Source of the DNA: a virus
Length of the DNA stretch: 64,000 nucleotides
Virus record (IMG/VR): IMGVR_UViG_3300031521_000015
Reading direction: 5' to 3' (one strand)
Position 1 is the first letter of the stretch, and every line of letters begins with the position of its first letter. The position numbers and the translations under genes are program-made. Below, one piece after another: positions 1,059 to 54,411 of this stretch. The notes beneath the pieces are model-generated. The model made no database searches and was not told the origin of the DNA. It worked only from the letters and a program-made list of their open reading frames with translations.

Positions 1059-1087
1059 TTGACAATGATATCCTAATAAGGTATTAT
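1059..1087 (+). promoter_or_regulatory. SigA-type promoter of endonuclease cassette A
   Basis: TTGACA(1059)-17 nt-TATTAT(1082). Confidence 0.8.
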
Positions 1088-1092
1088 TATAT

Positions 1093-1206
1093 TAGAAACT
1101 AGATAAGGAGTTATAAACCGTATCGAAAAGGAGTATCCGAACTCCCTGTTTCTATTTTTATAAATTTCGGAAAATAAATTAAAGTACGAATCGGAGGTAT
1201 TACATT
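1093..1206 (+). ncRNA. Structured 5' leader, copy A (three-stem junction, palindromic loop TTATAA, anti-SD pseudoknot)
   Basis: P1 1093-1099/1148-1154; P2 1102-1108/1118-1124; P3 1130-1134/1141-1145. Loop TCCGA is complementary to TCGGA at 1167 and at 1191 (overlapping SD). Confidence 0.75.
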
Positions 1207-2304
1207 ATGGAAACTAAAACATGTACTAAATGTGGACAAGAGTTCCCAATGTCTAAAGAATATTTTGAACCCAGAAAAGAATCAAAAGATGGATTCAGAA
1301 ATCAATGTAGAGATTGCAGAAATATCAATAGAAGAAATATATATGATGATAAATATAAAAGTGAAGATAATAGAAGATGGCAACAAGAAGAAATAGATAT
1401 ATTGAATAAATATTATGAAATTATGAGTAACAATGAATTACAAGAAAAGTATTTAAACACTAGAACTATTTCTCAAATAATAGATTATGCAAGTAAAAAA
1501 TTAAACTTACATAAACATGATGACGTTAAAATATATTATAGTGATGGTACAACAATGGGGTGGACAAAAGAAGATGATGAATATTTATTAAAAAACTATC
1601 CATCAACAAATTTTAAAGAAATGGAATTAGCTTTAGGAAAAAACAGTTTTACAATAACAGCTAGAGCTATTAAAAAGGGAATACAAAGAGATAATAAGTA
1701 TTCTGAAGAAGAAATAAATATCGTAAAAAAGTATTATGCAGACAATGAAAACAAATGGATTATTGATAATTTTATGAGTAGTAGAAGTAAGACTGAAATA
1801 ATAGGATTAGCAAATCGTTTAGGAATAAATAAAAATGATGAACTGATATTTCAAATAAGAGTTGATACTGGCTTAAAAAATTTAAAATGTATACCTGACC
1901 AAACAGGTTCTAATAGTCCTTGTTGGAAAGGTGGAACAGACGTATTAAGATTATATGTAAGAAACCATATTAGAAAATGGAACAAAGATAGTTTAAAATA
2001 TTATAATAATAAATGTTTTATTAGTGGAGATTCAGAAAATTTGATAATCCATCATGGATACTCTTTTAAAGACATATTGAATGAGACTATAAAAGAATTA
2101 GGACTTACTTATAATAATGATTTATCTAATTATAGTAATGGTGAACTTAGAAATATAATAGATTTATCAAATGAAAAACACTATAAATATGGTTTTGGAA
2201 TCCCTTTAACCAAAGAATTACATTTATTATTTCATAAAACTTATGGTTTTGTAAATTACACAAATGAACAGTTAATAGAATTTAAAAATAATTATGCTAG
2301 TTGA
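1207..2304 (+). CDS. Free-standing putative HNH homing endonuclease
   Basis: N-terminal CxxC..CxxC, repeated W-x2-EE-x3-L helical repeats, C-terminal CFISG..LIIHH..H..FH HNH-like motif; own promoter and terminator. Confidence 0.75.
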   Translation: METKTCTKCGQEFPMSKEYFEPRKESKDGFRNQCRDCRNINRRNIYDDKYKSEDNRRWQQEEIDILNKYYEIMSNNELQEKYLNTRTISQIIDYASKKLNLHKHDDVKIYYSDGTTMGWTKEDDEYLLKNYPSTNFKEMELALGKNSFTITARAIKKGIQRDNKYSEEEINIVKKYYADNENKWIIDNFMSSRSKTEIIGLANRLGINKNDELIFQIRVDTGLKNLKCIPDQTGSNSPCWKGGTDVLRLYVRNHIRKWNKDSLKYYNNKCFISGDSENLIIHHGYSFKDILNETIKELGLTYNNDLSNYSNGELRNIIDLSNEKHYKYGFGIPLTKELHLLFHKTYGFVNYTNEQLIEFKNNYAS

Positions 2305-2327
2305 TAATAAATAAGCTTCAATAACTG

Positions 2328-2352
2328 AAGGCGTGGTAACACGTCTTTTGTT
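2328..2352 (+). terminator. Intrinsic terminator after cassette A
   Basis: AAGGCGTG-GTAA-CACGTCTT plus T run. Confidence 0.7.
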
Positions 2353-2400: not shown

Positions 2401-4252
2401 ATGGGAATTGGAAAGCAAAACTTATCACAAAGAAAATTAGAAGGATATATGAAATATGTAGAAATGATACAGTGGGGCAGAAAAAATCCTGCACGAACGA
2501 TTCGTTGAGGATTTCATGGGAATTCAATTTTTAGATTTACAAAAATATATATTTATGAATATGTGGACTACGCCATTTGTATTGTTATGCCAATGTAGGA
2601 ATAGTGGGAAAAGTACGATTTCAGCTCCATTTTTGATGGCGAAATCCATATTATACCCAAACTTTTATAGTTATATAATATCAACAAATGGTAGTCAAGC
2701 TCAGGAAACTTTCTTAAAAATAGAAAAAATAACCAAGAGACAATTATCTTCATTTACGGGTTTAACAGATTTCTTTCAAAATGAAATAATTACTTCAAAT
2801 GCTAACAAAGATGGGTTCACTCATAAACCAGAGTCATTTACTTTCGAAGTATTTAATGGTAGTAAAGTACATACATTGAACTCAAACTATGATGGATCAC
2901 GTGGGAAAAGAAGCATGTGCAATTTTTATGACGAAACTGGATTTATGTTAGAAAAAGCTTTTGGTGCAACTGAACCATTTACAACACAAAATGCAGACTT
3001 TAAGTTAGGAGGAGATATTGACGTATCACTAGAACCACAAAGTTTTCCAAACCAACTTATATACGCTTCTTCGGCATCAAGTATAGATACTTATTTTTTT
3101 AAAAAATATAAAGAATTTAGTAAACAAATGCTATTAGGAAATAAAAATTATTTCTGTGCTGATATTAAGTGTGATTTAGTTTTAAATCCTATGTTTAATG
3201 GTAAATTATATCCAGTATCTTTGCTAACACAAGAAAAAATAGATAATGCTATGAGAGAAAATAAAGAACAAGCTCTTAGAGAATACCATAATATGTTTTC
3301 TAAAGAAGGTGGAGAACAACAACCATTTAAAAGAGGACAAATAATAAAAAATAGTGAAGTCAGAAGACCAATGTTGGTAAACGAAGGAAATATTGAACGA
3401 CATATCACAGCTTTTTATGATCCTGCAAGAAGTTTTGATGACTCTGCTGTATTGTTTGCTGAATTTATGAAAGATAAGGAATTAGGATGGACTTGTAAAA
3501 TAATAAATGCAGTAAGATTAGTAGATATAGGAACGAAGAAAAAAATACCAATGAGAACACCTGAACAAATAGAGTATATTAGAAATTTATTAGTAGATTA
3601 TAATGGTCAAGGATTTGGAGAATATGAAAATATAGGTGCAATATTGGTAGATTCAGGAGCTGGTGGAGCAGGAGTTAATATTGCAGATTATTTTATGGAA
3701 GAGTGGACAGATAAAAAAGGAATGAAAAGAAAAGGTTTGATAGATGCTATAGAATCTAAAGAATATACAAATAAATTTCCTGAAGCTGTAGATAAAATGC
3801 GATTAATTTCTCCTAAAAAATATAGGACTGAAATGTTTGATGCCTTGGTGGAAATGATTAATTTAGATTTAGTTTCGTTTACGGAAACATATGACATGAA
3901 AGGATTTATAAGTATTCCTGTAGAAACAGAAATAATATATAAAGACGAAAAAACAAAAACAGATAAAAAACAAAAAGAGATAAAATATAAGCAAGCAAAT
4001 TTATGTTTCGAAGAACAATTGGCTTTAAAAACTATAGATAAACTAAAAGAACAATTGGTGCAAATATATAGATTCGATAATGCTGAAAGAACTTCACATA
4101 AATACGCTTTATCTCCTGAAAAACAAAATACTATGCATGATGACTTGGCTTATTGTGGAGCAATGATGGGTTGGTATTTAAAACAATTAAGGAGAGAAAA
4201 TATAACTAATGAAGATGATGATGATGAAGACCGTCAATGGGTATTTTGGTAA
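2401..4252 (+). CDS. terL: Terminase large subunit; 5' part (2401-2508) out of frame with main ORF 2516-4252 owing to ACGA duplication at 2493-2500
   Basis: Walker A-like CRNSGKST, Walker B FYDE, nuclease YDPAR..D and HDD motifs. Upstream ATG with RBS encodes ...IQWGRKNPAR, which joins FVEDFMGIQFLD if 4 nt are removed. Confidence 0.88.
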
Positions 4253-14623: not shown

Positions 14624-14657
14624 TTTACAATAATACCTAAATATGGTATTATTGTAA
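14624..14657 (+). promoter_or_regulatory. SigA-type promoter of cassette B inside a perfect 13-bp inverted repeat
   Basis: TTTACA(14624)-17-TATTAT(14647); TTACAATAATACC 14625-14637 / GGTATTATTGTAA 14645-14657. Confidence 0.75.
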
Positions 14658-14763
14658 TGTAGGATAAATAAGGAAGTCATGAGCCTTATTGAAAAGGAGT
14701 ATTCCGAACTCCCTTCCTATATTACATATAAATCGGAAAATAAATTCAACGGAGGAATTAGTG
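14653..14763 (+). ncRNA. Structured 5' leader, copy B (palindromic loop TCATGA)
   Basis: P1 14653-14664/14715-14726; P2 14667-14673/14684-14690; P3 14696-14700/14708-14712. Loop TTCCGA pairs with TCGGAA 14733 or CGGAGG SD 14750. Confidence 0.8.
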
Positions 14764-16293
14764 ATGGAAGAAAGGGAATATCAACAAATTATTGAACAAT
14801 GGGAACTAGAACATAATGAATTAATTGAAAGTGGAACGTGTAGAAAGATATTTTTAGATGTATTACCTAAATCAAATCACAATGGTGGAAGTATAGATTG
14901 GAAAAATAGCAACGACTATAAAGTATATTTTATAGATAAAAATGTTGCAGGTTATGTAATGATAATAAATTATAGAAGTATTGGACAAGAACTACAAATA
15001 TCTTATCTACAAGATATATATAAAATAAATACAGGAGATTTTACACAATGTAAATTAGGGAATATAGTTGGTACAAAAACAAGTAATTTTAAATATAAAA
15101 TTGGGCAAATAATAAAAGATAATAAAAGAGATATAACAATAACCGATTATAAAAATGAAAAAGGAAAAAGTAAACTTTATAAATACAAATGCAATACGTG
15201 TGGATTTGATTGTGGAGAACATTATTCAATAAGAGATAAGGAATATAAAGATGAATTTTGGATACCAGAACATAATCTACTTAGTCGAGATACAGGTTGT
15301 GCTTGTTGTAATAGTACAATTATAGTAAAAGATATAAATAGCATATCTAAAACAAATCCAGAAATGGCGAAGTTCTTTTTAAATATTGAAGATACTTATA
15401 TTCATAGTGAATGTAGCAATAGAAAAGTATATGTAAAATGTAAAGAATGTGGGAAAATAAAGAAGAAAAAAGTTTCTGTAAATTCTTTTGTTTCAAATGA
15501 AAGTATTGGTTGTGAATATTGTGGCGATGGGAAAAGTTACGCTGAAAAATTCATGTTTAATATTTTAACTCAATTAAATATAGAATTTATTCCAGAGTAT
15601 TCTCCGGATTGGATAGGCAAAAGAAGATATGATTTTTACATTCCATCAATGAATTTAATTATAGAGATGGATGGTGGTTGGCATGAAAATGACAACAAAA
15701 TGAGTGGACAAAGTTCTAAGGAGTCAAAAGCAATTGATGATTATAAAGAAGAAATGGCTATGTTACATGGAATAAAGAAACCAATTAGGATTAATTGTTA
15801 TTTTAGAATTAGAAAATATGAAAATATAAAGAATAATATACTAAATAGCGATTTAAATTATTATTTTGATTTAAATAAAGTTGATTTTAAGAAAGCTGAT
15901 GAACAATCTCATAAGCCAATAGTAAAAGAAGCTTGTGAATTATGGAATAGTGGGATTAGAAGTACAGGGGAAATAGGTAAGATTTTAAAAATATCAAGTT
16001 CATGTGCACTTAGTTATTTGAAGAAAGGTAAAAATCTCGATTGGTGCGATTATACTGTAGAAGATAGTGAAAAATTCAAAATAGAACATATTAGAAAAGT
16101 CACAAAAAACAATTGTAAACCAGTTGAAATATTTAAAGATAATATAAGTCAAGGAATATTTCCATCAGCACAAGAATTAGATGAAAAAAGTGAAGAATTA
16201 TTTGGAGCAAAGCTAAACTTTTGTAAAATATCAGCAGTATGCCGAGGTAAAAAGCCACAATATAAAGGATATACTTTTAAATTTGTAGCCTAA
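14764..16293 (+). CDS. Free-standing putative homing endonuclease (Zn ribbons, PD-(D/E)XK-like nuclease, HTH, NUMOD1-like tail)
   Basis: Multiple CxxC, RYDFY..IIEMDGGWH, C-terminal ISAVCRG..YKGYTFKF. Real start GTG 14761 or ATG 14764 after GGAGG. Confidence 0.75.
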   Translation: MEEREYQQIIEQWELEHNELIESGTCRKIFLDVLPKSNHNGGSIDWKNSNDYKVYFIDKNVAGYVMIINYRSIGQELQISYLQDIYKINTGDFTQCKLGNIVGTKTSNFKYKIGQIIKDNKRDITITDYKNEKGKSKLYKYKCNTCGFDCGEHYSIRDKEYKDEFWIPEHNLLSRDTGCACCNSTIIVKDINSISKTNPEMAKFFLNIEDTYIHSECSNRKVYVKCKECGKIKKKKVSVNSFVSNESIGCEYCGDGKSYAEKFMFNILTQLNIEFIPEYSPDWIGKRRYDFYIPSMNLIIEMDGGWHENDNKMSGQSSKESKAIDDYKEEMAMLHGIKKPIRINCYFRIRKYENIKNNILNSDLNYYFDLNKVDFKKADEQSHKPIVKEACELWNSGIRSTGEIGKILKISSSCALSYLKKGKNLDWCDYTVEDSEKFKIEHIRKVTKNNCKPVEIFKDNISQGIFPSAQELDEKSEELFGAKLNFCKISAVCRGKKPQYKGYTFKFVA

Positions 16294-17205: not shown

Positions 17206-18177
17206 ATGGAACAAAACAAAATTATCAAATTATTTACAGAAGGAAAAGTACAAGTAAAGGAGCGAGAATTTACAAAAGTATTAGGTGGATTTTCTGAGTC
17301 GAGTCCAATTATTACTGATAGACAAATTGCAGAATTATTAGAATATGCAAAAGGAGCTAGAAGTGTAAGGCAAAGATTGTCCGATAATTTACAACATTTT
17401 GAATTTGGAGTTGATATTTTAGATTTAAAATCTAGTGTCCCACAGCAGGACACTACAAAGGAAGCATTGAAAACACTAGGTTATACAGATCAAGCTATTA
17501 ATTTAGCTAAAAATATTTATGTATTTTCTGAAGCAGGATTTTTATTATTTTTAAAATTTGCAGAAGGAGATAAAGCAGTAGAGTTATATAAAGATTTCAT
17601 TGAAGATTATTTTAAAATTAAGGCAGAGAACATTGTTATGGAAAAGACTTTACAAGAAAGTAAAGAATCTTTTATAGAAGAAAGAAAATATATATTAGGT
17701 AGTGTAATAATGGAATCTGATACTTCTAAGAAATTAGTATTATTAGAAAGAGATAAAAAATTAGAAGAACAAATTAAACAAATAGATATAACTTTAGCAA
17801 AAGAACAATTAATGGAACAAGTACAAGATAGTTTAGCTATCGCAGATAGATTTACTAACTCAAATAAGTTATATGACGTAGGTGAATTTAGTAAGATATT
17901 AAATATTCCAAAGTTTGGACGTAATAAATTATTTGAATGGATGAGAGATAATAAAATATTAAGAGCAAATAATGAACCTTATCAAAATCAAGTAGACATG
18001 AACCATTTTAAGGTTATACCAATAGAAGGAAACAGATTTGCTGATTCAAAAACACTAATAAAATCACAAGGCATTTCTTACATAATTAAAAAGTTGATTA
18101 AAGATGGTAAAATACAATCTAAATCTTATGAAGATATTATAAAGAATATAGATGAGAACTTGAAAGTTGCTAATTAA
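17206..18177 (+). CDS. Phage antirepressor (ORF6N-like N-terminus, KilAC/ANT C-terminus)
   Basis: GGF..IAEL..LSDN..HFE.GVDILDLK; YVFSEAGF; GRNKLFEWMRDN..NEPYQ. Confidence 0.82.
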   Translation: MEQNKIIKLFTEGKVQVKEREFTKVLGGFSESSPIITDRQIAELLEYAKGARSVRQRLSDNLQHFEFGVDILDLKSSVPQQDTTKEALKTLGYTDQAINLAKNIYVFSEAGFLLFLKFAEGDKAVELYKDFIEDYFKIKAENIVMEKTLQESKESFIEERKYILGSVIMESDTSKKLVLLERDKKLEEQIKQIDITLAKEQLMEQVQDSLAIADRFTNSNKLYDVGEFSKILNIPKFGRNKLFEWMRDNKILRANNEPYQNQVDMNHFKVIPIEGNRFADSKTLIKSQGISYIIKKLIKDGKIQSKSYEDIIKNIDENLKVAN

Positions 18178-21525: not shown

Positions 21526-21809
21526 TTAAAAAACACCTCCTTTTAAGTATTTTGCCATAAAAACACTTATTAATAATTTATATGGTAAAATACTTAAAAG
21601 AATTAGGTAGAACATTATTAGGGGACACAAGACTAATATTATATAGTTCAAAATTTATAGTTTTAATAAAATGTAAATCCCTTTATTTATATTTTAACTT
21701 TCTCTATACAATACAGTGATTATATTATACCATAAATGTATAAAAATGGATATGAAATTGAAAATAAAATTGATTATAATTTGCTCGTAAGAGTGTTATA
21801 ATATATAGT

Positions 21810-21931
21810 AGGAAGAAATAAATATAATAAGTAGTCGACGATTTGTTATATTGAATGGGTTAGCTCCAATTAACCTTTCTTCCTTTTTTATTTAATATTG
21901 GAGAAATAAATTATATTGGAGGAATTTAAGA
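21810..21931 (+). ncRNA. Structured 5' leader, copy C (palindromic loop GTCGAC)
   Basis: Follows TGtTATAAT 21794-21802. P1 21810-21818/21876-21884; P2 21821-21832/21841-21852; P3 21858-21863/21870-21875. CTCCAAT pairs with ATTGGAG 21897 or 21915 (SD). Confidence 0.8.
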
Positions 21932-23551
21932 ATGGAAGGAAATAGACAATTAAATCAAGAAGAATATATGGAGATTATTGAAAAATTTAAGGAAAATAAT
22001 AGAGAAGATTATGAGAGTGGTAAATGTAAAAAGATATTTTTGGAATGTTTGCCTAGATGGGGAAAAGGTGGAAAAGCAAAAGAAGGTAGTATAAATTGGA
22101 TTGAATCAGTGAATAAAAATTATTATATATTTTTTATATATGGTGTTCATGAGGATTATATAAGATTAATAGATTATTCATATGATAAACAATTAAAAAT
22201 AACAATTGAATATTATGGTGAAAACTTAAGTTTAAATGCAGGGAGCATTAATAATTGTCAAATAGGCAAACTATTCAATATAAGGAATAAAGAATATTTA
22301 TATAATAGAGGTGATATTGTCAAAGGAAAGCATTCAAATTTATTGATATTAGAACAATTAATTATTAAATCAAACTATAGTTATAAAGTTAAAGGATATA
22401 AATATAAATGTTTGTCATGTGGAGATATAGATGAAATTTCTCAAAGAGATATTCTACGTGGAGTAGGTTGTGAAATTTGTTGTCCAAATTCTCAAAAAGT
22501 CGTAAAAGAGATAAATTCTATATGGAAAACGAACCTAGAACTAGTTAAATACTTTGTAAACGAAGAAGATACTTGGAAATACACAATTGGTAGCCATAAA
22601 AAAGTGTGGTTTAAGTGTTTGGACTGTTATTATAGAAAAGAAATGACTATTGATAATTTTGTAAGGAACGGATTTTCATGTAATAAATGTGGGGATGGTA
22701 TTTCAGTGCCAAATAAAATAATGTTTAATGTGTTAGAACAACTAAATGTTCAATTTGAAGCAGAAAAGAAAGTAGAATGGTGTAAATTTTTATATAAAAA
22801 TAAACGAAGACAAGGTTATTATGATTTCTATTTTGAGCAAGATGGCAAAAAATACATTATAGAAATGGATGGGGGTCTAGGTCATGGTAAGGGGAATTTT
22901 AAGAATAATATGACTGCTAAAGAATCACAATTTATTGATGATGAAAAAGATAGATTAGCTATTGAACATGGAATTGAAGTAATTAGAGTTGACTGTGACC
23001 ATCGTATGTACTATGGATTTGATTATATAAAAAATAATATATTATCTAATGTTAATATAAATAATTTGTTTTTATTAGCCAATATTGATTGGAGTAAGGT
23101 TTTGAAATTTGTTTCGTCAAGTAGAATCAAAGAAGCTTGTGATTTATGGAATATCGGTATTCATAGTACAACTGAAATTTCCAAAATTATGAAGATGAGC
23201 AGAACAACAATTTGCACGTATTTAAAAATAGGATTTGAACTGAAAATAACAGATTATACTGTGGAAATTTCAAAAAATATTAATAATAATAATACTATAG
23301 AAAGAAATAAACAAAAGTTAAGTACTAAAATAATTTGTATAGAAAATGGTATTATATTTAATTCCATTTCTGAATGTGAATTAAATAGTTTTAAAATATT
23401 TGGAATAAAAATGTTTAATAGTGCTATAACTAAAGTATGTCAAGGGAAACAGCAACATCATCAAGGATATCAATTTAGATACTTAAAAGACCTTACCGAA
23501 GAACAAATAAAAGAAATTCAAGAAAATGCAAAATTAAATCAAGCAATATAA
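21932..23551 (+). CDS. Free-standing putative homing endonuclease, paralogue of 14764 and 30821
   Basis: Same N-terminus (KKIFLECLP..INW), CxxC ribbons, YYDFY..IIEMDGGLGH, NUMOD1-like end. Confidence 0.75.
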   Translation: MEGNRQLNQEEYMEIIEKFKENNREDYESGKCKKIFLECLPRWGKGGKAKEGSINWIESVNKNYYIFFIYGVHEDYIRLIDYSYDKQLKITIEYYGENLSLNAGSINNCQIGKLFNIRNKEYLYNRGDIVKGKHSNLLILEQLIIKSNYSYKVKGYKYKCLSCGDIDEISQRDILRGVGCEICCPNSQKVVKEINSIWKTNLELVKYFVNEEDTWKYTIGSHKKVWFKCLDCYYRKEMTIDNFVRNGFSCNKCGDGISVPNKIMFNVLEQLNVQFEAEKKVEWCKFLYKNKRRQGYYDFYFEQDGKKYIIEMDGGLGHGKGNFKNNMTAKESQFIDDEKDRLAIEHGIEVIRVDCDHRMYYGFDYIKNNILSNVNINNLFLLANIDWSKVLKFVSSSRIKEACDLWNIGIHSTTEISKIMKMSRTTICTYLKIGFELKITDYTVEISKNINNNNTIERNKQKLSTKIICIENGIIFNSISECELNSFKIFGIKMFNSAITKVCQGKQQHHQGYQFRYLKDLTEEQIKEIQENAKLNQAI

Positions 23552-30627: not shown

Positions 30628-30707
30628 AGAAATTTATTAAAACAATTATCTTATTTGTAATTTATTAGTTATAATTACTCTTAAAGTATGTTATAATATA
30701 TAGATAT

Positions 30708-30820
30708 GGAAGGATAGATTGAAAAGTCGCGAGTTCAATTGATAAGCTCTCTCCAATGAGTTTCCTTTCCTTTTATACATATTGGAGCAATAAATTAAAT
30801 TATATTGGAGGAATTTATTA
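30708..30820 (+). ncRNA. Structured 5' leader, copy D (palindromic loop TCGCGA)
   Basis: Follows TGtTATAAT 30689-30697. P1 30708-30714/30763-30770; P2 30717-30723/30734-30740; P3 30745-30749/30758-30762. CTCCAAT pairs with ATTGGAG 30781 or 30804 (SD). Confidence 0.8.
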
Positions 30821-32401
30821 ATGGAGAGAATTAGCCAAGAAAAGTATTTAGAAATTATAAATAAATTTAAAGAAGAAAATAAAGAAGATTATGAGAATAG
30901 TAAAATTAGAAAAGTATTTTTAGATATTTTACCACATGGAGGAAAAGGTAAAAAGGGAGGAAATATATCTAATAAATGTATTAATTGGGATTACTCAAAA
31001 AACTTCAAAATATATTTCATATACAAGGACAGAGAAGGATATATTAAAATTATTGATTATGAAAGAGATAAAAAGAATTATATATTAATAGAATTCAATG
31101 ATAAGGAAGATGAGGTTTTTACTTGTGATTTTCAAAGATGTAAAATAGGAAAAATATTAGGTAAAGCAACTGGAGATTTTAAAATAGAAATAGGAATGAT
31201 ATTTAAAGATAATAAAAGAAATATCACCATTACTGATGCAAAGAAAGATGAAAAAGGGCTAAAATATTATAAATATAAATGTAACGAGTGTGGGTTTGAA
31301 TGTGGCGAACATTATTCTACTAGAGATAAAATATATAAAGAAGAGTATTGGATAACAGAAGGAAATTTAAAAGATGGAAAAGGTTGTTCTTGTTGTTGTA
31401 GTTCATCACATATTGTAGTCAAAAATATTAATTCGATTGTTATTACTGATCCTTGGATGATACCTTATTTTCAAGGAGGATATGAGGAAGCTAAGAAATA
31501 TACTGCTAGAAGCAATGAAAACATAATACCGTTATGTCCTGACTGTGGAAAAGTAAAATCAAAGAAAATGAGGATAAATACAATTTATGAACATCATTCA
31601 ATAGCTTGTATTTGTAGTGATAAATTTCCCTATCCCGAAAAATTTGTTTTTAGTATTTTGATACAATTGGGGCTAGATTTTGAAACACAATTGAATAAAT
31701 CTTCGTTTAATTGGTGTAAAAAATACAAATATGATTTTTATTTTGAATATAACAATGAACAGTATATTGTAGAAACTCATGGTATGCAACATTATGAAGA
31801 AGGATTTACGCATTTAAAAGATTCTAGAATGCTTAAAGAAGAACAAGAAAATGATAGATTAAAGAAAGAATTAGCTTTAGCAAATGGTATTAAAGAAGAA
31901 AATTATATAGTGATAGATTGTAGGAAAAGTACATTAGAATGGATTAATAATAGTATATTAAACAATGAAAAGATGATAACTAAATTTGATTTGAGTAATA
32001 TTGATTGGATTCAATGTTCAGAATTTGCATGTATTAATTTAGTTAAAAAAGTTTGTGAAATTAAACATGACAACTGTGAAATGACAACTACAGATATAGG
32101 AAATATTCTTAACATAAAAGGTCAAACTGCGAGAAAATATTTAAAGCAAGGTTCTGAAATATGGGATTGGATTAATTATGATGCAAAAGAAGAAATGGAA
32201 AAAGCATTGGGTAAAAAAGTAGAAATATTTAAAGATGGAATAAGTTTAGGTGTTTTTAAGTCTATAATTGAATTAGAAAGACGAAGTTTAGAAATATTTG
32301 GAGTTAAATTATTTAATGCTAATATAGGGAAAGTTTGTCAAGGGATAAGTGGACATCATCATGGATTTACATTTAAATATATTGATTCGGAAATATATTA
32401 A
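30821..32401 (+). CDS. Free-standing putative homing endonuclease, paralogue of 14764 and 21932
   Basis: CxxC ribbons, KYDFY..IVETHGMQH, NUMOD1-like IGKVCQG..HHGFTFKY. Confidence 0.75.
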   Translation: MERISQEKYLEIINKFKEENKEDYENSKIRKVFLDILPHGGKGKKGGNISNKCINWDYSKNFKIYFIYKDREGYIKIIDYERDKKNYILIEFNDKEDEVFTCDFQRCKIGKILGKATGDFKIEIGMIFKDNKRNITITDAKKDEKGLKYYKYKCNECGFECGEHYSTRDKIYKEEYWITEGNLKDGKGCSCCCSSSHIVVKNINSIVITDPWMIPYFQGGYEEAKKYTARSNENIIPLCPDCGKVKSKKMRINTIYEHHSIACICSDKFPYPEKFVFSILIQLGLDFETQLNKSSFNWCKKYKYDFYFEYNNEQYIVETHGMQHYEEGFTHLKDSRMLKEEQENDRLKKELALANGIKEENYIVIDCRKSTLEWINNSILNNEKMITKFDLSNIDWIQCSEFACINLVKKVCEIKHDNCEMTTTDIGNILNIKGQTARKYLKQGSEIWDWINYDAKEEMEKALGKKVEIFKDGISLGVFKSIIELERRSLEIFGVKLFNANIGKVCQGISGHHHGFTFKYIDSEIY

Positions 32402-42662: not shown

Positions 42663-42745
42663 TATGTTCAAATTTATTTTCATGGTGCTTTCAAAGATTG
42701 AAGGTAACTAAAAATAAAATATATGATGAAAGAAGGAATATTATA

Positions 42746-43576
42746 ATGAAAAATCAATTAACAATCAATGGAGAACAAAATTTTATGGGAGTTAACATTC
42801 CTATAATTGAAGGTGGATTTGGAGAAAATCAAAAAGTAATGCTAGCTAAGACAATATCAGAAATTCATGGAGTTAGAAATAATGATATACAAGATTTAAT
42901 AACTCAAAATATTGAAGAATTTGAAATAGGTATAGATTTACTTGATTTATGTGATGAAAATTTTAAAACCGAAGCTGTCGGTTTAGGCTTTATTACTAGT
43001 AACAGACAAAAATATTGCTATTTATTATCTGAACAAGGGTATATGTTATTAACTGGATTTATGAAAACAGAAAAAGCTAAAGATATTAGAAAGCAATTAA
43101 GAAGAGAATATTTTGCCATGAGACAAATTATAAATTCAGATGAACAATTAAAGGCAAATTTATTATTATCAATATACCAAGGTGGACAAGAAGGAATATT
43201 AGCATCAAAACAACTTACTGAATTAGAAGTTAAAGAAGCAGTTGCACCATTACAGAAAGAATTAGAAGAAAATAAGCCTATGGTTGAATTTGCCACACAA
43301 GTAAGCGAATCTGCTAATTCTATAACTATGGCACAATTTGCAAAAGTAATTAAGGATGAAAAAATAAATATTGGAAGAAATAAATTGTTTGAGTGGTTCA
43401 GAGATAATGGATATCTAAGATACAATAATGAACCTTATCAAAAATATATGGATTATTTTGAAGTAAAAGAGAATACATATAAAACTCCTTATGGAACTAA
43501 GACAAGTATTCAAAGCCTTGTAAATGGTAAAGGTCAAATTTACTTTGTTGAAAAGTTAAGAAAAGAATTTTGCTAA
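42746..43576 (+). CDS. Phage antirepressor (ORF6N-like plus KilAC), paralogue of 17206
   Basis: IEGGFG..LAK.I.EIH, YLLSEQGY, IGRNKLFEW.RDNG..NEPYQ, V.GKGQIYF; RBS favours ATG 42746. Confidence 0.85.
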   Translation: MKNQLTINGEQNFMGVNIPIIEGGFGENQKVMLAKTISEIHGVRNNDIQDLITQNIEEFEIGIDLLDLCDENFKTEAVGLGFITSNRQKYCYLLSEQGYMLLTGFMKTEKAKDIRKQLRREYFAMRQIINSDEQLKANLLLSIYQGGQEGILASKQLTELEVKEAVAPLQKELEENKPMVEFATQVSESANSITMAQFAKVIKDEKINIGRNKLFEWFRDNGYLRYNNEPYQKYMDYFEVKENTYKTPYGTKTSIQSLVNGKGQIYFVEKLRKEFC

Positions 43577-52806: not shown

Positions 52807-52812
52807 TATAGT

Positions 52813-52923
52813 AGGGGATAGCAAGGAGTAATTAACCATGTCAATAAGAGTATTATCCTAGATACTCTTCCCTTTTTACATATATAATGCTAGGATAACA
52901 AATTAAATTATTATAGGAGATGA
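52813..52923 (+). ncRNA. Structured 5' leader, copy E (palindromic loop TAATTA)
   Basis: P1 52813-52818/52869-52874; P2 52821-52826/52836-52841; P3 52847-52853/52862-52868. Loop TATCCTAG pairs with CTAGGATA 52890 or TAGGAG SD 52914. Confidence 0.75.
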
Positions 52924-54411
52924 TTGGACATGTTATTGACAAAGGAAGTTGAAGTAGAACTAAATGGAACTAATGTAAAGCATTATGAAGAATTGGGGTA
53001 TGAAATACTTAGAGAAAAGAAATGGAAGAAATGGTCAATTCCCACGGGTACTAAAATAAAAGTAAAAATTGAAGATGTGCCAAAAGGTTCTCATACAGAA
53101 GTGCAATGTTTGTGTGATTATTGTTTAGAAAAAGGTATAAGGACAGTAATTAATAAAAGATATCAAACACACATAAGAGAAAATAAAGATATTTGTGGTA
53201 AATGTAGTAAGAATAAAATAAAAGAAATACATGCGTTAGAAATTCAAACAAAAGTAAAAGAAACTTTTGACTTAGATATAACAAAGGATGGATATTATGA
53301 TTTAAAAAATGTTCAAAAAGTTATTGAATATTTTATATCAAAAAATAATAGATTTCCTAATACTAAAGAAATGTTATCTGTTTTGTTTATTAGTAATTCA
53401 ATTAGTAAAATGCATGGAGGTATGACCAATATTCAAAAAACTATGGGATATAAAAAAGAAGATTTATTGGTTGATGATAGTGGTATGTCTAATAGATCAG
53501 TTTATGAATATTATACAGCTATGTTTTTGTTAGGATTTAATATTTCATTTAAAAGAGAACAATCTCCATTTCCAAAAGGAGAAGGATTATTCAGAAGTGA
53601 TTTTACTTTTTATTTAGAAAATAATAAAACTATTCATTGTGAAGTATGGGGATACCCTAAAGAATTAAAGTCTAGTTTAGGAATAGCATATAATAAAAAT
53701 AGAAAAATCAAAGAAATATTATATGAAAAACATAATGTAGAATATATATCAATAGAACACGATGTTTTTATAAATGGTCTTGAACATATGCAAACAGAAT
53801 TAAAAAATATATTTAATGATTTTATTATAAATAAAGATTTAGTGTTGTCAGTAGAATATTTATTACCACCATACAAGTTATCTGATACTCAAATATTAGA
53901 AAGAATGATGAAATTTAGTGAAGATAAAAATACTCTTCCATCCTGTAGCCATTTAAGAGATATCGGGCAAAGAATGTTATATGAAGAAGTAATAAAAAGA
54001 TATAAAACTTATAAAACATTTGCAGATAAATTTGATAAAAAATTACTTTCTGATGTATATTGGGACACAGAAAAAGCACATAAATCTATATATGATATAT
54101 GTAATGAATTAAATAAAGATGTATTTAGTAACAATCTATTAGAGAAAGTAATAAAAAATAATAATGAATATAGTGGATTGGGTAGGTTTATTAGTTACCA
54201 AGGTGATTTTGTTGATTATTTTTTAGATTTTATAGAAATAAAAATAATCAATGAAAATGAAATGATAGCTGATGATATTATGAAAAAACTAGTTAATTTA
54301 ACATTTGGTAAATATCCACATAGAAAAAACAAAGTGACAGATTTCCAAATAGAAAAATCAAAATATCTATTAAACTTAATAAAAGAAAAGCAATTTAAAG
54401 AGGTAGTTTAA
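52924..54411 (+). CDS. Free-standing putative homing endonuclease (distinct PD-(D/E)XK-like type)
   Basis: N..HYE.LGY and CDYC..CGKC N-terminus; RS.YE..FRSDF..IHCEVWG nuclease-like motif; own promoter and terminator. Confidence 0.65.
   Translation: MDMLLTKEVEVELNGTNVKHYEELGYEILREKKWKKWSIPTGTKIKVKIEDVPKGSHTEVQCLCDYCLEKGIRTVINKRYQTHIRENKDICGKCSKNKIKEIHALEIQTKVKETFDLDITKDGYYDLKNVQKVIEYFISKNNRFPNTKEMLSVLFISNSISKMHGGMTNIQKTMGYKKEDLLVDDSGMSNRSVYEYYTAMFLLGFNISFKREQSPFPKGEGLFRSDFTFYLENNKTIHCEVWGYPKELKSSLGIAYNKNRKIKEILYEKHNVEYISIEHDVFINGLEHMQTELKNIFNDFIINKDLVLSVEYLLPPYKLSDTQILERMMKFSEDKNTLPSCSHLRDIGQRMLYEEVIKRYKTYKTFADKFDKKLLSDVYWDTEKAHKSIYDICNELNKDVFSNNLLEKVIKNNNEYSGLGRFISYQGDFVDYFLDFIEIKIINENEMIADDIMKKLVNLTFGKYPHRKNKVTDFQIEKSKYLLNLIKEKQFKEVV

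Follow-up and report, generated by a model that had tools for sequence, protein, structure and literature searches.

The C4 antisense RNA of phages P1 and P7 is cut from a longer precursor by RNase P. It is reportedly the subject of a 1990 study by Citron and Schuster, and the CI RNA of phage P4 is said to be related to it. Homing endonucleases need small, well-timed production. To our knowledge, the control of the free-standing ones is known for only a few T4 genes; Gibb and Edgell are said to have described hairpins that sequester the ribosome site of the T4 homing endonuclease genes mobE and I-TevI. A third system, the Rfam family int-alpA (RF02996, typed "Gene; sRNA"), reportedly comes from the 224-motif survey of Weinberg et al. 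in 2017. The main text of that survey paper (PMC5737381) makes no mention of int-alpA, and we found no functional study of it in the literature; where papers use the term, it is either an item in a list or a description of gene order. Here we describe cassette A, an HNH-type gene headed by its own promoter and leader RNA, in the 64,000-nucleotide (nt) window of IMG/VR virus record IMGVR_UViG_3300031521_000015; the window is the whole stretch that was analyzed, and all coordinates refer to it. We consider it probable, with moderate confidence, that cassette A is a free-standing, dispensable gene of the HNH homing-endonuclease type, equipped with a portable expression module of the int-alpA class (promoter, leader RNA and Shine-Dalgarno sequence) that throttles its translation.

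Organization of cassette A

The window comes from a large, uncultured phage whose portal region is 68% identical at the DNA level to Clostridium phage c-st. Cassette A consists of a sigma-70-type promoter, a leader of 115 nt, an open reading frame (ORF) of 365 amino acids (aa) and a terminator. The transcript is predicted to start at about 1093-1096, the first bases of the closing helix P1. All features lie on the + strand:

1059..1087, +: sigma-70-type promoter (TTGACA, 17-nt spacer, TATTAT), matching the consensus at 11/12 positions
1093..1154, +: predicted three-way-junction RNA (int-alpA match, scores with covariance models R1 and R2, covariation)
1093-1099 pairing with 1148-1154, +: helix P1
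1100-1101, +: junction strand J1/2, UA
1102-1108 pairing with 1118-1124, +: helix P2, whose loop (1109-1117) includes the palindrome UUAUAA
1125-1129, +: junction strand J2/3, GAAAA
1130-1134 pairing with 1141-1145, +: helix P3, with loop L3 (AUCCGA) at 1135-1140
1146-1147, +: junction strand J3/1, CU
1155..1165, +: U-rich linker UUUUUAUAAAU (by sequence), immediately 3' of P1
1166..1171, +: site 1 (the "decoy"), UUCGGA, complement of L3; predicted pseudoknot, duplex -7.3 kcal/mol
1173..1180, +: conserved spacer word AAUAAAUU between site 1 and site 2
1191-1195 (part of 1191..1197), +: site 2, UCGGA, second complement of L3, within AUCGGAGG; duplex -7.0 kcal/mol
1207..2304, +: cargo A ORF, 365 aa
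2327..2358, +: intrinsic-terminator-like hairpin and T-run closing the cassette

Site 2 overlaps the Shine-Dalgarno sequence GGAGG (1193-1197), 9 nt upstream of the ATG. The U-rich linker may serve as the tail of a terminator or as the linker of the pseudoknot, or as both.

Five copies of the leader and their fold

Leaders are named A to E in window order. The first-pass annotation had singled out leader B as the closest to leader A on the strength of shared words, and these are indeed in both: GAAAAGGAGTATCCGAACTCCCT at 1125-1147 of leader A, a form one base longer at 14691-14714 of leader B, and TCGGAAAATAAATT downstream in each. The 23-mer common to the two had 0 matches in 100 shuffles. 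In a structural alignment, A is 73% identical to B and 59% to E, the only other window leader within the eight nearest to A.

The three-way junction was first suggested by a side-by-side reading of the leaders of four cassettes, A-D. In each, P1, UA, hairpin P2, a GAAAA-like linker, hairpin P3, CU or UU, and the return strand of P1 follow one another in this order, and 8-17 nt downstream lies a complement of the P3 loop (L3). Because MAFFT alignments of the leaders were out of register with the helices, a covariance model was seeded with leaders B and D and a structure written by hand, and then iterated. The seeded model recovered A (66 bits), C (33 bits) and a fifth copy, E; leader A scores 66 bits with model R1 and 87 bits with model R2. 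The four other window leaders are as follows:

14655..14748, +: leader B, with L3 specificity UCCGA as in A and P2 loop UCAUGA; before the Vsr-like ORF 14764-16293
21809..21913, +: leader C, with L3 CUCCAA and both sites UUGGAG; before the Vsr-like ORF 21932-23551
30705..30797, +: leader D, with L3 CUCCAA and both sites UUGGAG; before the Vsr-like ORF 30821-32401
52809..52906, +: leader E, with L3 UAUCCUAG, site 1 CUAGGAUA and site 2 UAGGA on the Shine-Dalgarno sequence; before ORF 52930-54411

All cassettes are co-oriented within long structural-gene operons. The P2 loops of the five leaders hold differing 6-nt palindromes (UUAUAA, UCAUGA, GUCGAC, UCGCGA and UAAUUA); across leaders in general these hexamers vary yet stay self-complementary. 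The spacer word AAUAAAUU (AAYAAAUU) is present in A-D, with AACAAAUU in E, and recurs exactly or nearly so in many related phage leaders. It was not found in the Escherichia coli member of int-alpA described below, and may be a nuclease or protein site. Most members, E. coli int-alpA included, have a U-run 3' of P1.

Covariation of the helices, the loop and its two sites

Single-sequence minimum-free-energy folds of the leaders were no better than those of shuffled sequences (z -0.05 to -0.65), so the case for the fold rests on covariation and not on energy. In IMG/VR, 23 loci were found through homologues of the B-type protein, and a scan of their phage records with the improved model gave many more leaders. 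Among the model matches, L041, L042, L058, L061, L062, L066, L068, L069 and L073 were discarded as plain terminators or as lacking the loop/site pairs. The covariation sample consisted of 26 distinct leaders from related phages, aligned to the covariance model. Every helix pair (21/21) shows changes on both sides. Paired cells amount to 92.8%. Sliding the 3' partners by 1-3 columns lowers this figure to about 45%, and shuffling lowers it to 59.8%, with 0/500 shuffles reaching the observed value; the alignment is fitted to the model, which flatters these counts, but the margin is nevertheless large.

Closer inspection of the tails revealed that the L3 complement is duplicated in nearly every leader inspected, once just past the U-rich stretch (site 1) and once on or touching the Shine-Dalgarno sequence (site 2). 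At least five Watson-Crick pairs at both sites were counted in 24/26 leaders, compared with 29/528 mismatched loop/tail combinations. The leaders carry more than 10 distinct sets of L3 and site words, among them:

L3 CUCCAA, site word UUGGAG
L3 AUCCUAG, site word CUAGGAU
L3 UUCGACC, site word GGUCGAA
L3 AUCAAUC, site word GAUUGAU
L3 UCCUUAC, site word GUAAGGA
L3 UGUCCUUU, site word AAAGGACA
L3 ACUCGCA, site word UGCGAGU
L3 UUUUCAUGUG, site word CACAUGAAAA

Site words devoid of Shine-Dalgarno-like letters (GGUCGA, GAUUGAU, ACAUGAA, GCGAG) are still duplicated beside the Shine-Dalgarno sequence, so chance pairing of UCC-rich loops with GGAGG cannot explain the pattern. The duplex energies of the two sites are similar, with medians of -8.7 kcal/mol for site 1 and -7.5 kcal/mol for site 2, a summary that is approximate because the automatic choice of site 2 fell inside the ORF for B, L034, L059 and L064.

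Relationship to int-alpA

At the gathering threshold, Rfam gave no match in the whole window, and no tRNA genes were found there. A permissive Rfam scan of 1040-1230 returned one credible match, int-alpA at 1092-1170 (34.4 bits, E 7e-6 in this 191-nt scan), a score below the RF02996 gathering threshold of 35.8 bits. The junctions of leader A, CUAG, CGAAAAG and CCUG, are in register with those of int-alpA, and B-E and their relatives retain UA, GAWAA and YU at the same places. A hammerhead-type core and known riboswitch classes were also considered and dropped, as junction lengths and sequences did not fit and no Rfam model matched.

The link to the family is provided by bacterial sequences. 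A search of 596 Gb of genomes with the P2-loop pattern gave 78 matches, 8 of which are genuine leaders by the model; the others have no model support, consistent with a rough chance estimate of about 70. The eight come from Clostridium, Fictibacillus, Mesobacillus, Acetobacterium, Oscillospiraceae, Clostridiales, Smithella and Desulfoplanes. The Smithella and Desulfoplanes leaders (L085 and L098) score 42.0 and 44.9 bits with the phage-built model R2, and 47.0 and 46.0 bits with RF02996, so both exceed the Rfam cut-off and match the model built from phage leaders. Because such doubly matched sequences bridge the two groups, the phage leaders are, by sequence and model score, a diverged, AT-rich branch of int-alpA and not a new RNA family. 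The exact A/B-type word, searched in IMG/VR, gave no records beyond those already found.

A bona fide E. coli int-alpA (L048, strain 2012EL-2448; 64 bits) has the UA/GAAAA/CU junction and the U-rich tail. Its loop ACCUUA also matches two sites, UAAGGU (site 1) and AAGGU on the Shine-Dalgarno sequence of the next ORF (site 2). An integrase gene precedes this copy, and hypothetical, helix-turn-helix and Icd-like genes follow it. In this region (L048:1493-3058), the copy begins 7 nt past the integrase stop codon, which leaves no space for a promoter; it would be a 3'-untranslated-region or operon-internal element. The Icd-like protein is encoded on the same island, icd being the gene under C4 RNA control in P1.

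Exchange of the leader between unrelated cargos

The first-pass annotation had proposed that the promoter-leader is a module that swaps cargo. If so, the leader of A should not track its protein, and this is what we found. The nearest relative of leader A is a leader in another phage, G001, that stands before a GIY-YIG/NUMOD gene (L035): it is 89% identical in the structural alignment and is the sister of A in the leader tree (support 0.84). In contrast, the leader of the HNH cassette of G001 itself is only 56% identical to leader A, and leader and cargo trees are thus incongruent. Between cassette A and the GIY-YIG locus of G001, identity is about 90% (by our count on the alignment) over the segment bounded by the -35 box and the start codon, and nil outside; the conserved block begins at the cassette A promoter. 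With this sharp-edged block, unrelated proteins and at least seven cargo types, the swapping of cargos is borne out. The cargos and the basis for each assignment are:

HNH: family search (L043), motif by eye (L136)
Vsr-like: family searches and a fold match
GIY-YIG: family search (L035), motif by eye (others)
T5orf172/MUG113: family search
E-type: N-terminal domain, family search
Ant/Bro-like: family search (L037), by eye (L065)
Integrase-like: by eye only (one Acetobacterium copy)
AlpA-like: by eye
Unknown: no basis given

Recombination would take place at the -35 box and at the start codon, the two edges of the module, which would thereby come to stand before unrelated cargos. Judged from these alignments, the pattern shows that the regulatory RNA evolves separately from its cargo, each being an exchangeable part. 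A further suggestion, that the RNA rather than the protein may define this element family, holds in part. As the leader precedes at least seven cargo types, the RNA and not the protein is their common denominator; however, it is also found in front of genes that encode no nuclease (Ant/Bro-like and, by eye, integrase-like) and is therefore better described as a regulatory module of mobile-element genes than as the mark of one element family.

Genome G002 has two inverted cassettes 4 kb apart (L040 and L044, at 186.7 kb and 190.7 kb), with identical 87-nt leaders and identical sequence through to the ATG. Their promoters and ORFs, which are B-type paralogues, have diverged; the identity suggests gene conversion or recent copying of the module within one genome. 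In a Clostridiales metagenome-assembled genome (L136:561-1379), an int-alpA-type leader and an ORF with a canonical HNH motif (by eye) lie within an array of at least seven tRNA genes, and the leader begins 16 nt past a tRNA 3' end. In the window itself, ORFs 17206-18177 and 42698-43576 share a 78%-identical stretch of 78 nt (17910-17987 and 43366-43443) that, by eye, looks like an antirepressor (KilAC-like) motif. No leader of the int-alpA-like class was found before either ORF at the thresholds used.

The cargo proteins

Three regions can be distinguished in the protein encoded by cassette A:

aa 5-38: zinc ribbon CxxC...CxxC at the N terminus
aa ~55-215: three Myb/SANT-like repeats
aa ~229-362: probable divergent HNH (His-Me) nuclease domain, with HH at aa 282-283, H-x3-H at aa 339-343 and a ~31-aa insert between hairpin and helix

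The "helical repeats" of the first-pass annotation can be identified as the three Myb/SANT-like repeats (W-x-x-E(E/D)), on a sub-threshold Pfam Myb match and a PHROG match to residues 117-177. Pfam and PDB sequence searches with cargo A gave no nuclease match. However, its C-terminal 140 aa align across the whole domain with a Pfam-positive HNH ORF (28 bits) of G001 (E 4e-4); the alignment places HH and H-x3-H in register and reveals the insert in A. The predicted structure of this domain, which is of modest confidence (mean predicted local distance difference test score 67), contains the strand-strand-helix elements, and its only notable PDB match is the SciA endonuclease of phage T5 (probability 0.97, E 0.04, template-modeling [TM] score 0.41-0.46). 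We therefore read the C-terminal domain as a probable, divergent HNH domain. It is common to a few proteins with other N termini. A metagenome protein (P0009) fuses A-like Myb repeats to a domain with the Vsr-type motif IEVQGDYFH, so the DNA-binding and nuclease parts of the cargos are themselves shuffled.

Cargos B, C and D belong to one PHROG family of unknown function and have treble-clef zinc fingers. The motif YDFY...IEMDGGWHE of B conforms to the Vsr-type pattern D...E-x-D/H-G-x-x-H, and the model of the B core matches Vsr (1vsr) and the homing endonuclease I-Bth0305I (3r3p) with probability 0.99 (TM score at most 0.67, normalized to the target). In a search of the B-D profile against PDB, only the I-HmuI-like C-terminal tail was matched. 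By motif and model, B, C and D are predicted Vsr/I-Bth0305I-like PD-(D/E)XK enzymes. The N-terminal domain of cargo E (ORF 52930-54411) is of homing-endonuclease type.

BLASTP of A against B and C gave nothing better than E 0.09, and a profile-profile comparison of A with the B-type proteins reached a probability of 7.6%, confined to the zinc-ribbon segment. Together with the domain matches, these comparisons agree with the earlier claim that the proteins behind leaders A and B are unrelated: the catalytic domains of A (His-Me/HNH by our reading) and of B-D (Vsr-like PD-(D/E)XK) are not homologous.

Dispensability of the HNH gene

The HNH protein is unchanged on at least 20 metagenome contigs, and no empty site was found, every variant of the phage examined carrying cassette A. 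One natural variant (L163:2510-2944) has promoter and leader identical to those of cassette A and a deletion, put at ~70-80 nt by eye, within the part of the HNH gene that encodes the zinc ribbon. The deletion shifts the frame and the ORF stops after 30 codons, which makes the HNH gene dispensable.

The HNH cassette of G001 stands before a terminase-small-like gene, and cassette A between the YonG_N-domain and large-terminase genes. This difference in insertion point and the truncating deletion lend indirect support to a mobile, selfish gene. In G001 (L043:1622-2583), the leader is followed by two overlapping ORFs, one of 132 aa with a Myb-like repeat and a zinc ribbon and one of 188 aa with a canonical HNH domain; the pair looks like a split version of cargo A.

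The large-terminase gene of the window phage is itself split: a first frame (2401-2507) ends at TGA, the main frame (2516-4252) is +1 to it, and ACGA is repeated at the junction (2401-2530). The split is not an assembly error, because it is called on independent metagenome contigs as well. It lies ~180 nt past the HNH gene, and a 4-base duplication is what fill-in of a staggered cut would leave. We speculate that it is a scar or an immunity polymorphism of the neighboring endonuclease.

Proposed mechanism and alternatives

We infer the following sequence of events from the arrangement of loop and sites. The transcript would begin at P1 and fold as a three-way junction, after which L3 could pair either with site 1, as a pseudoknot, or with site 2 on the ribosome-binding site. 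During transcription L3 would encounter site 1 first, and a new full-length message would be open at its ribosome site and translated. Later, leaders with a free L3 would pair with site 2 and shut translation off. Such leaders could be truncated transcripts whose 3' end falls on the U-run beyond P1, or another copy of the leader that docks by way of the palindromic P2 loop. The outcome would be a brief burst and then low expression of a product dangerous to DNA, by a logic like that with which P1 C4 RNA silences icd and ant. Most likely, then, the leader limits translation of its cargo by pairing of the loop with the ribosome site, and possibly it acts in trans, by analogy with C4.

Several observations weigh against this explanation, in addition to the fitted alignment noted above. 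Many L3 loops hold UCC or CUCC, which fits any Shine-Dalgarno sequence, and in the mismatched control 23% of combinations have at least five pairs at site 2. Leader A falls 1.4 bits short of the Rfam cut-off; leader C had no int-alpA match in the permissive scan, which covered A and C; and the phage-built model R2 failed to recover the E. coli member. Leader B has no clear U-run after P1, and a branched stem would be an unusual terminator. The HNH gene adjoins terminase genes here and in G001, and so could serve packaging instead of homing. Finally, the proposed model accounts neither for the conservation of the junction bases nor for the AAUAAAUU word, which leaves room for a protein- or ligand-dependent switch in cis.

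A bolder form of the proposal, which we regard as possible but tentative, is that int-alpA leaders are a universal portable "burst-then-silence" cassette of mobile elements, from Proteobacteria to Firmicute and other phages. A released small RNA would dimerize via P2 with the leader of its own message and close the ribosome site through L3, and a private address made up of the P2 palindrome and the L3 word would avoid cross-talk.

The room left by the junction bases could be filled by a purely cis-acting sensor, an alternative that we hold to be unlikely. The junction would bind a protein or small molecule, or sense temperature, and stabilization or breakage of the pseudoknot between L3 and site 1 would decide whether L3 moves to its own ribosome site, with no RNA acting in trans. 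Indeed, conservation of UA, GAAAA/GAUAA and CU/UU extends from E. coli to Clostridium-type phages although simple antisense presentation does not need these bases, and the near-equal duplex energies of the two sites are as expected of a poised switch. However, the cargos are functionally diverse and share no common metabolite, no known riboswitch family matches, and the P2-loop hexamers change yet stay palindromic, which points to RNA-RNA contact between copies.

Loop-to-ribosome-site pairing is also not what the leader would be for if junction and U-run were mainly a terminator or attenuator that shields the cassette from late-operon read-through, the loop/site pairs tuning termination. The U-run found after P1 in most members and the co-orientation of the cassettes inside long structural-gene operons speak for such an insulator, but we consider it improbable: each leader is preceded by a promoter of its own and its transcript starts at P1, so an insulator there would end the transcript of its own gene. 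Moreover, site 1 lies past the U-run, too late for an effect on termination in cis, and site 2 tracks the Shine-Dalgarno sequence and not the terminator.

Ordinary paralogy is more improbable still. Here, the likeness of leaders A and B would reflect duplication of a regulatory region in one phage, and the HNH protein would be an essential packaging cofactor of terminase. HNH genes beside terminase genes are common in phages, and leader and HNH gene are near terminase genes in G001 too. In contrast, the closest leader belongs to the GIY-YIG gene of another phage and the identity has sharp edges, the HNH cassettes of the two phages occupy different sites, a natural variant truncates the HNH ORF, and protein A has long DNA-binding repeats typical of homing enzymes. 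We give next to no credence to a DNA-level element, in which the conserved fold would work as single-stranded DNA, e.g., as a recombination or homing site. In its favor, covariation alone cannot separate DNA from RNA and the module does recombine at its edges; against it, the order is always promoter, fold, Shine-Dalgarno sequence and ORF, G-U pairs are frequent in the leader helices, and the second site is tied to the ribosome-binding site.

Comparison with known systems

One small RNA design thus heads at least seven kinds of optional gene, with at least four unrelated nuclease folds, antirepressor-like and integrase-like genes among them; it occurs both in large phages of the Clostridium and Bacillus types and in the genomes of bacteria from several phyla. 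The covariation of loop, decoy and ribosome site provides a concrete, testable mechanism; to this are added the sharp-edged exchange of a module between HNH and GIY-YIG genes, the sequences bridging to Rfam, and an explicit comparison with P1 C4. If the burst-then-silence reading were true, it would give an orphan Rfam motif a function and define a new class of self-addressed antisense regulators exchanged by selfish genes; if the trans version were true, the immunity principle of P1 C4 would extend far beyond P1-like phages.

With int-alpA, the phage leaders share the three-way junction with UA, GAAAA and CU, the U-rich tail after P1, the P3 loop complementary to the tail, and the duplication of decoy and Shine-Dalgarno complement that is also present in the E. 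coli member. They differ in being AT-rich and in having longer P2 arms with palindromic loops, their own promoters and homing-endonuclease-type genes downstream, whereas in E. coli only 7 nt separate the copy from the integrase stop codon before it, and the gene behind it is hypothetical. Among proteins, A resembles the I-HmuI-type HNH homing endonucleases in its HH...H-x3-H predicted His-Me core and differs from the usual HNH domain in lacking CxxC zinc pairs around that core and in its ~31-aa insert. B-D resemble I-Bth0305I and the EDxHD enzymes, matching 3r3p and 1vsr, and I-HmuI in their C-terminal DNA-binding tail.

As at mobE and I-TevI of T4, an RNA structure at the ribosome-binding site would hold down translation of a selfish nuclease. 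The T4 elements, however, are not built as a portable junction RNA that carries a decoy; each is a local hairpin, opened when a late promoter lying within it is used.

The C4 model (RF01695) finds P1 c4 at 68.8 bits, and C4 was not among the Rfam matches at E up to 10 for leaders A and C. The likeness is one of design. In the annotated P1 record, promoters, the spare sites a1 and b1, the 77-nt C4 RNA, a2 (4 nt later), b2 just before icd, and ant follow in that order, and the b' loop UCACUAAC of C4 matches b2 GUUAGUGA before icd. In both systems a small branched RNA (in C4, a closing stem and two hairpins) heads the operon that it controls, or in our case would control. The loop of the last hairpin, b' in C4, is complementary to the ribosome-binding region of the next gene, as is L3 on the same transcript in the leaders; the recognition words have a second copy (a1/b1 in P1), loop and targets covary, and Ant-type cargo is found in both. 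In contrast, C4 uses two elements, the a' junction and the b' loop, with its spare copies upstream, whereas the leaders use one loop with both sites downstream.

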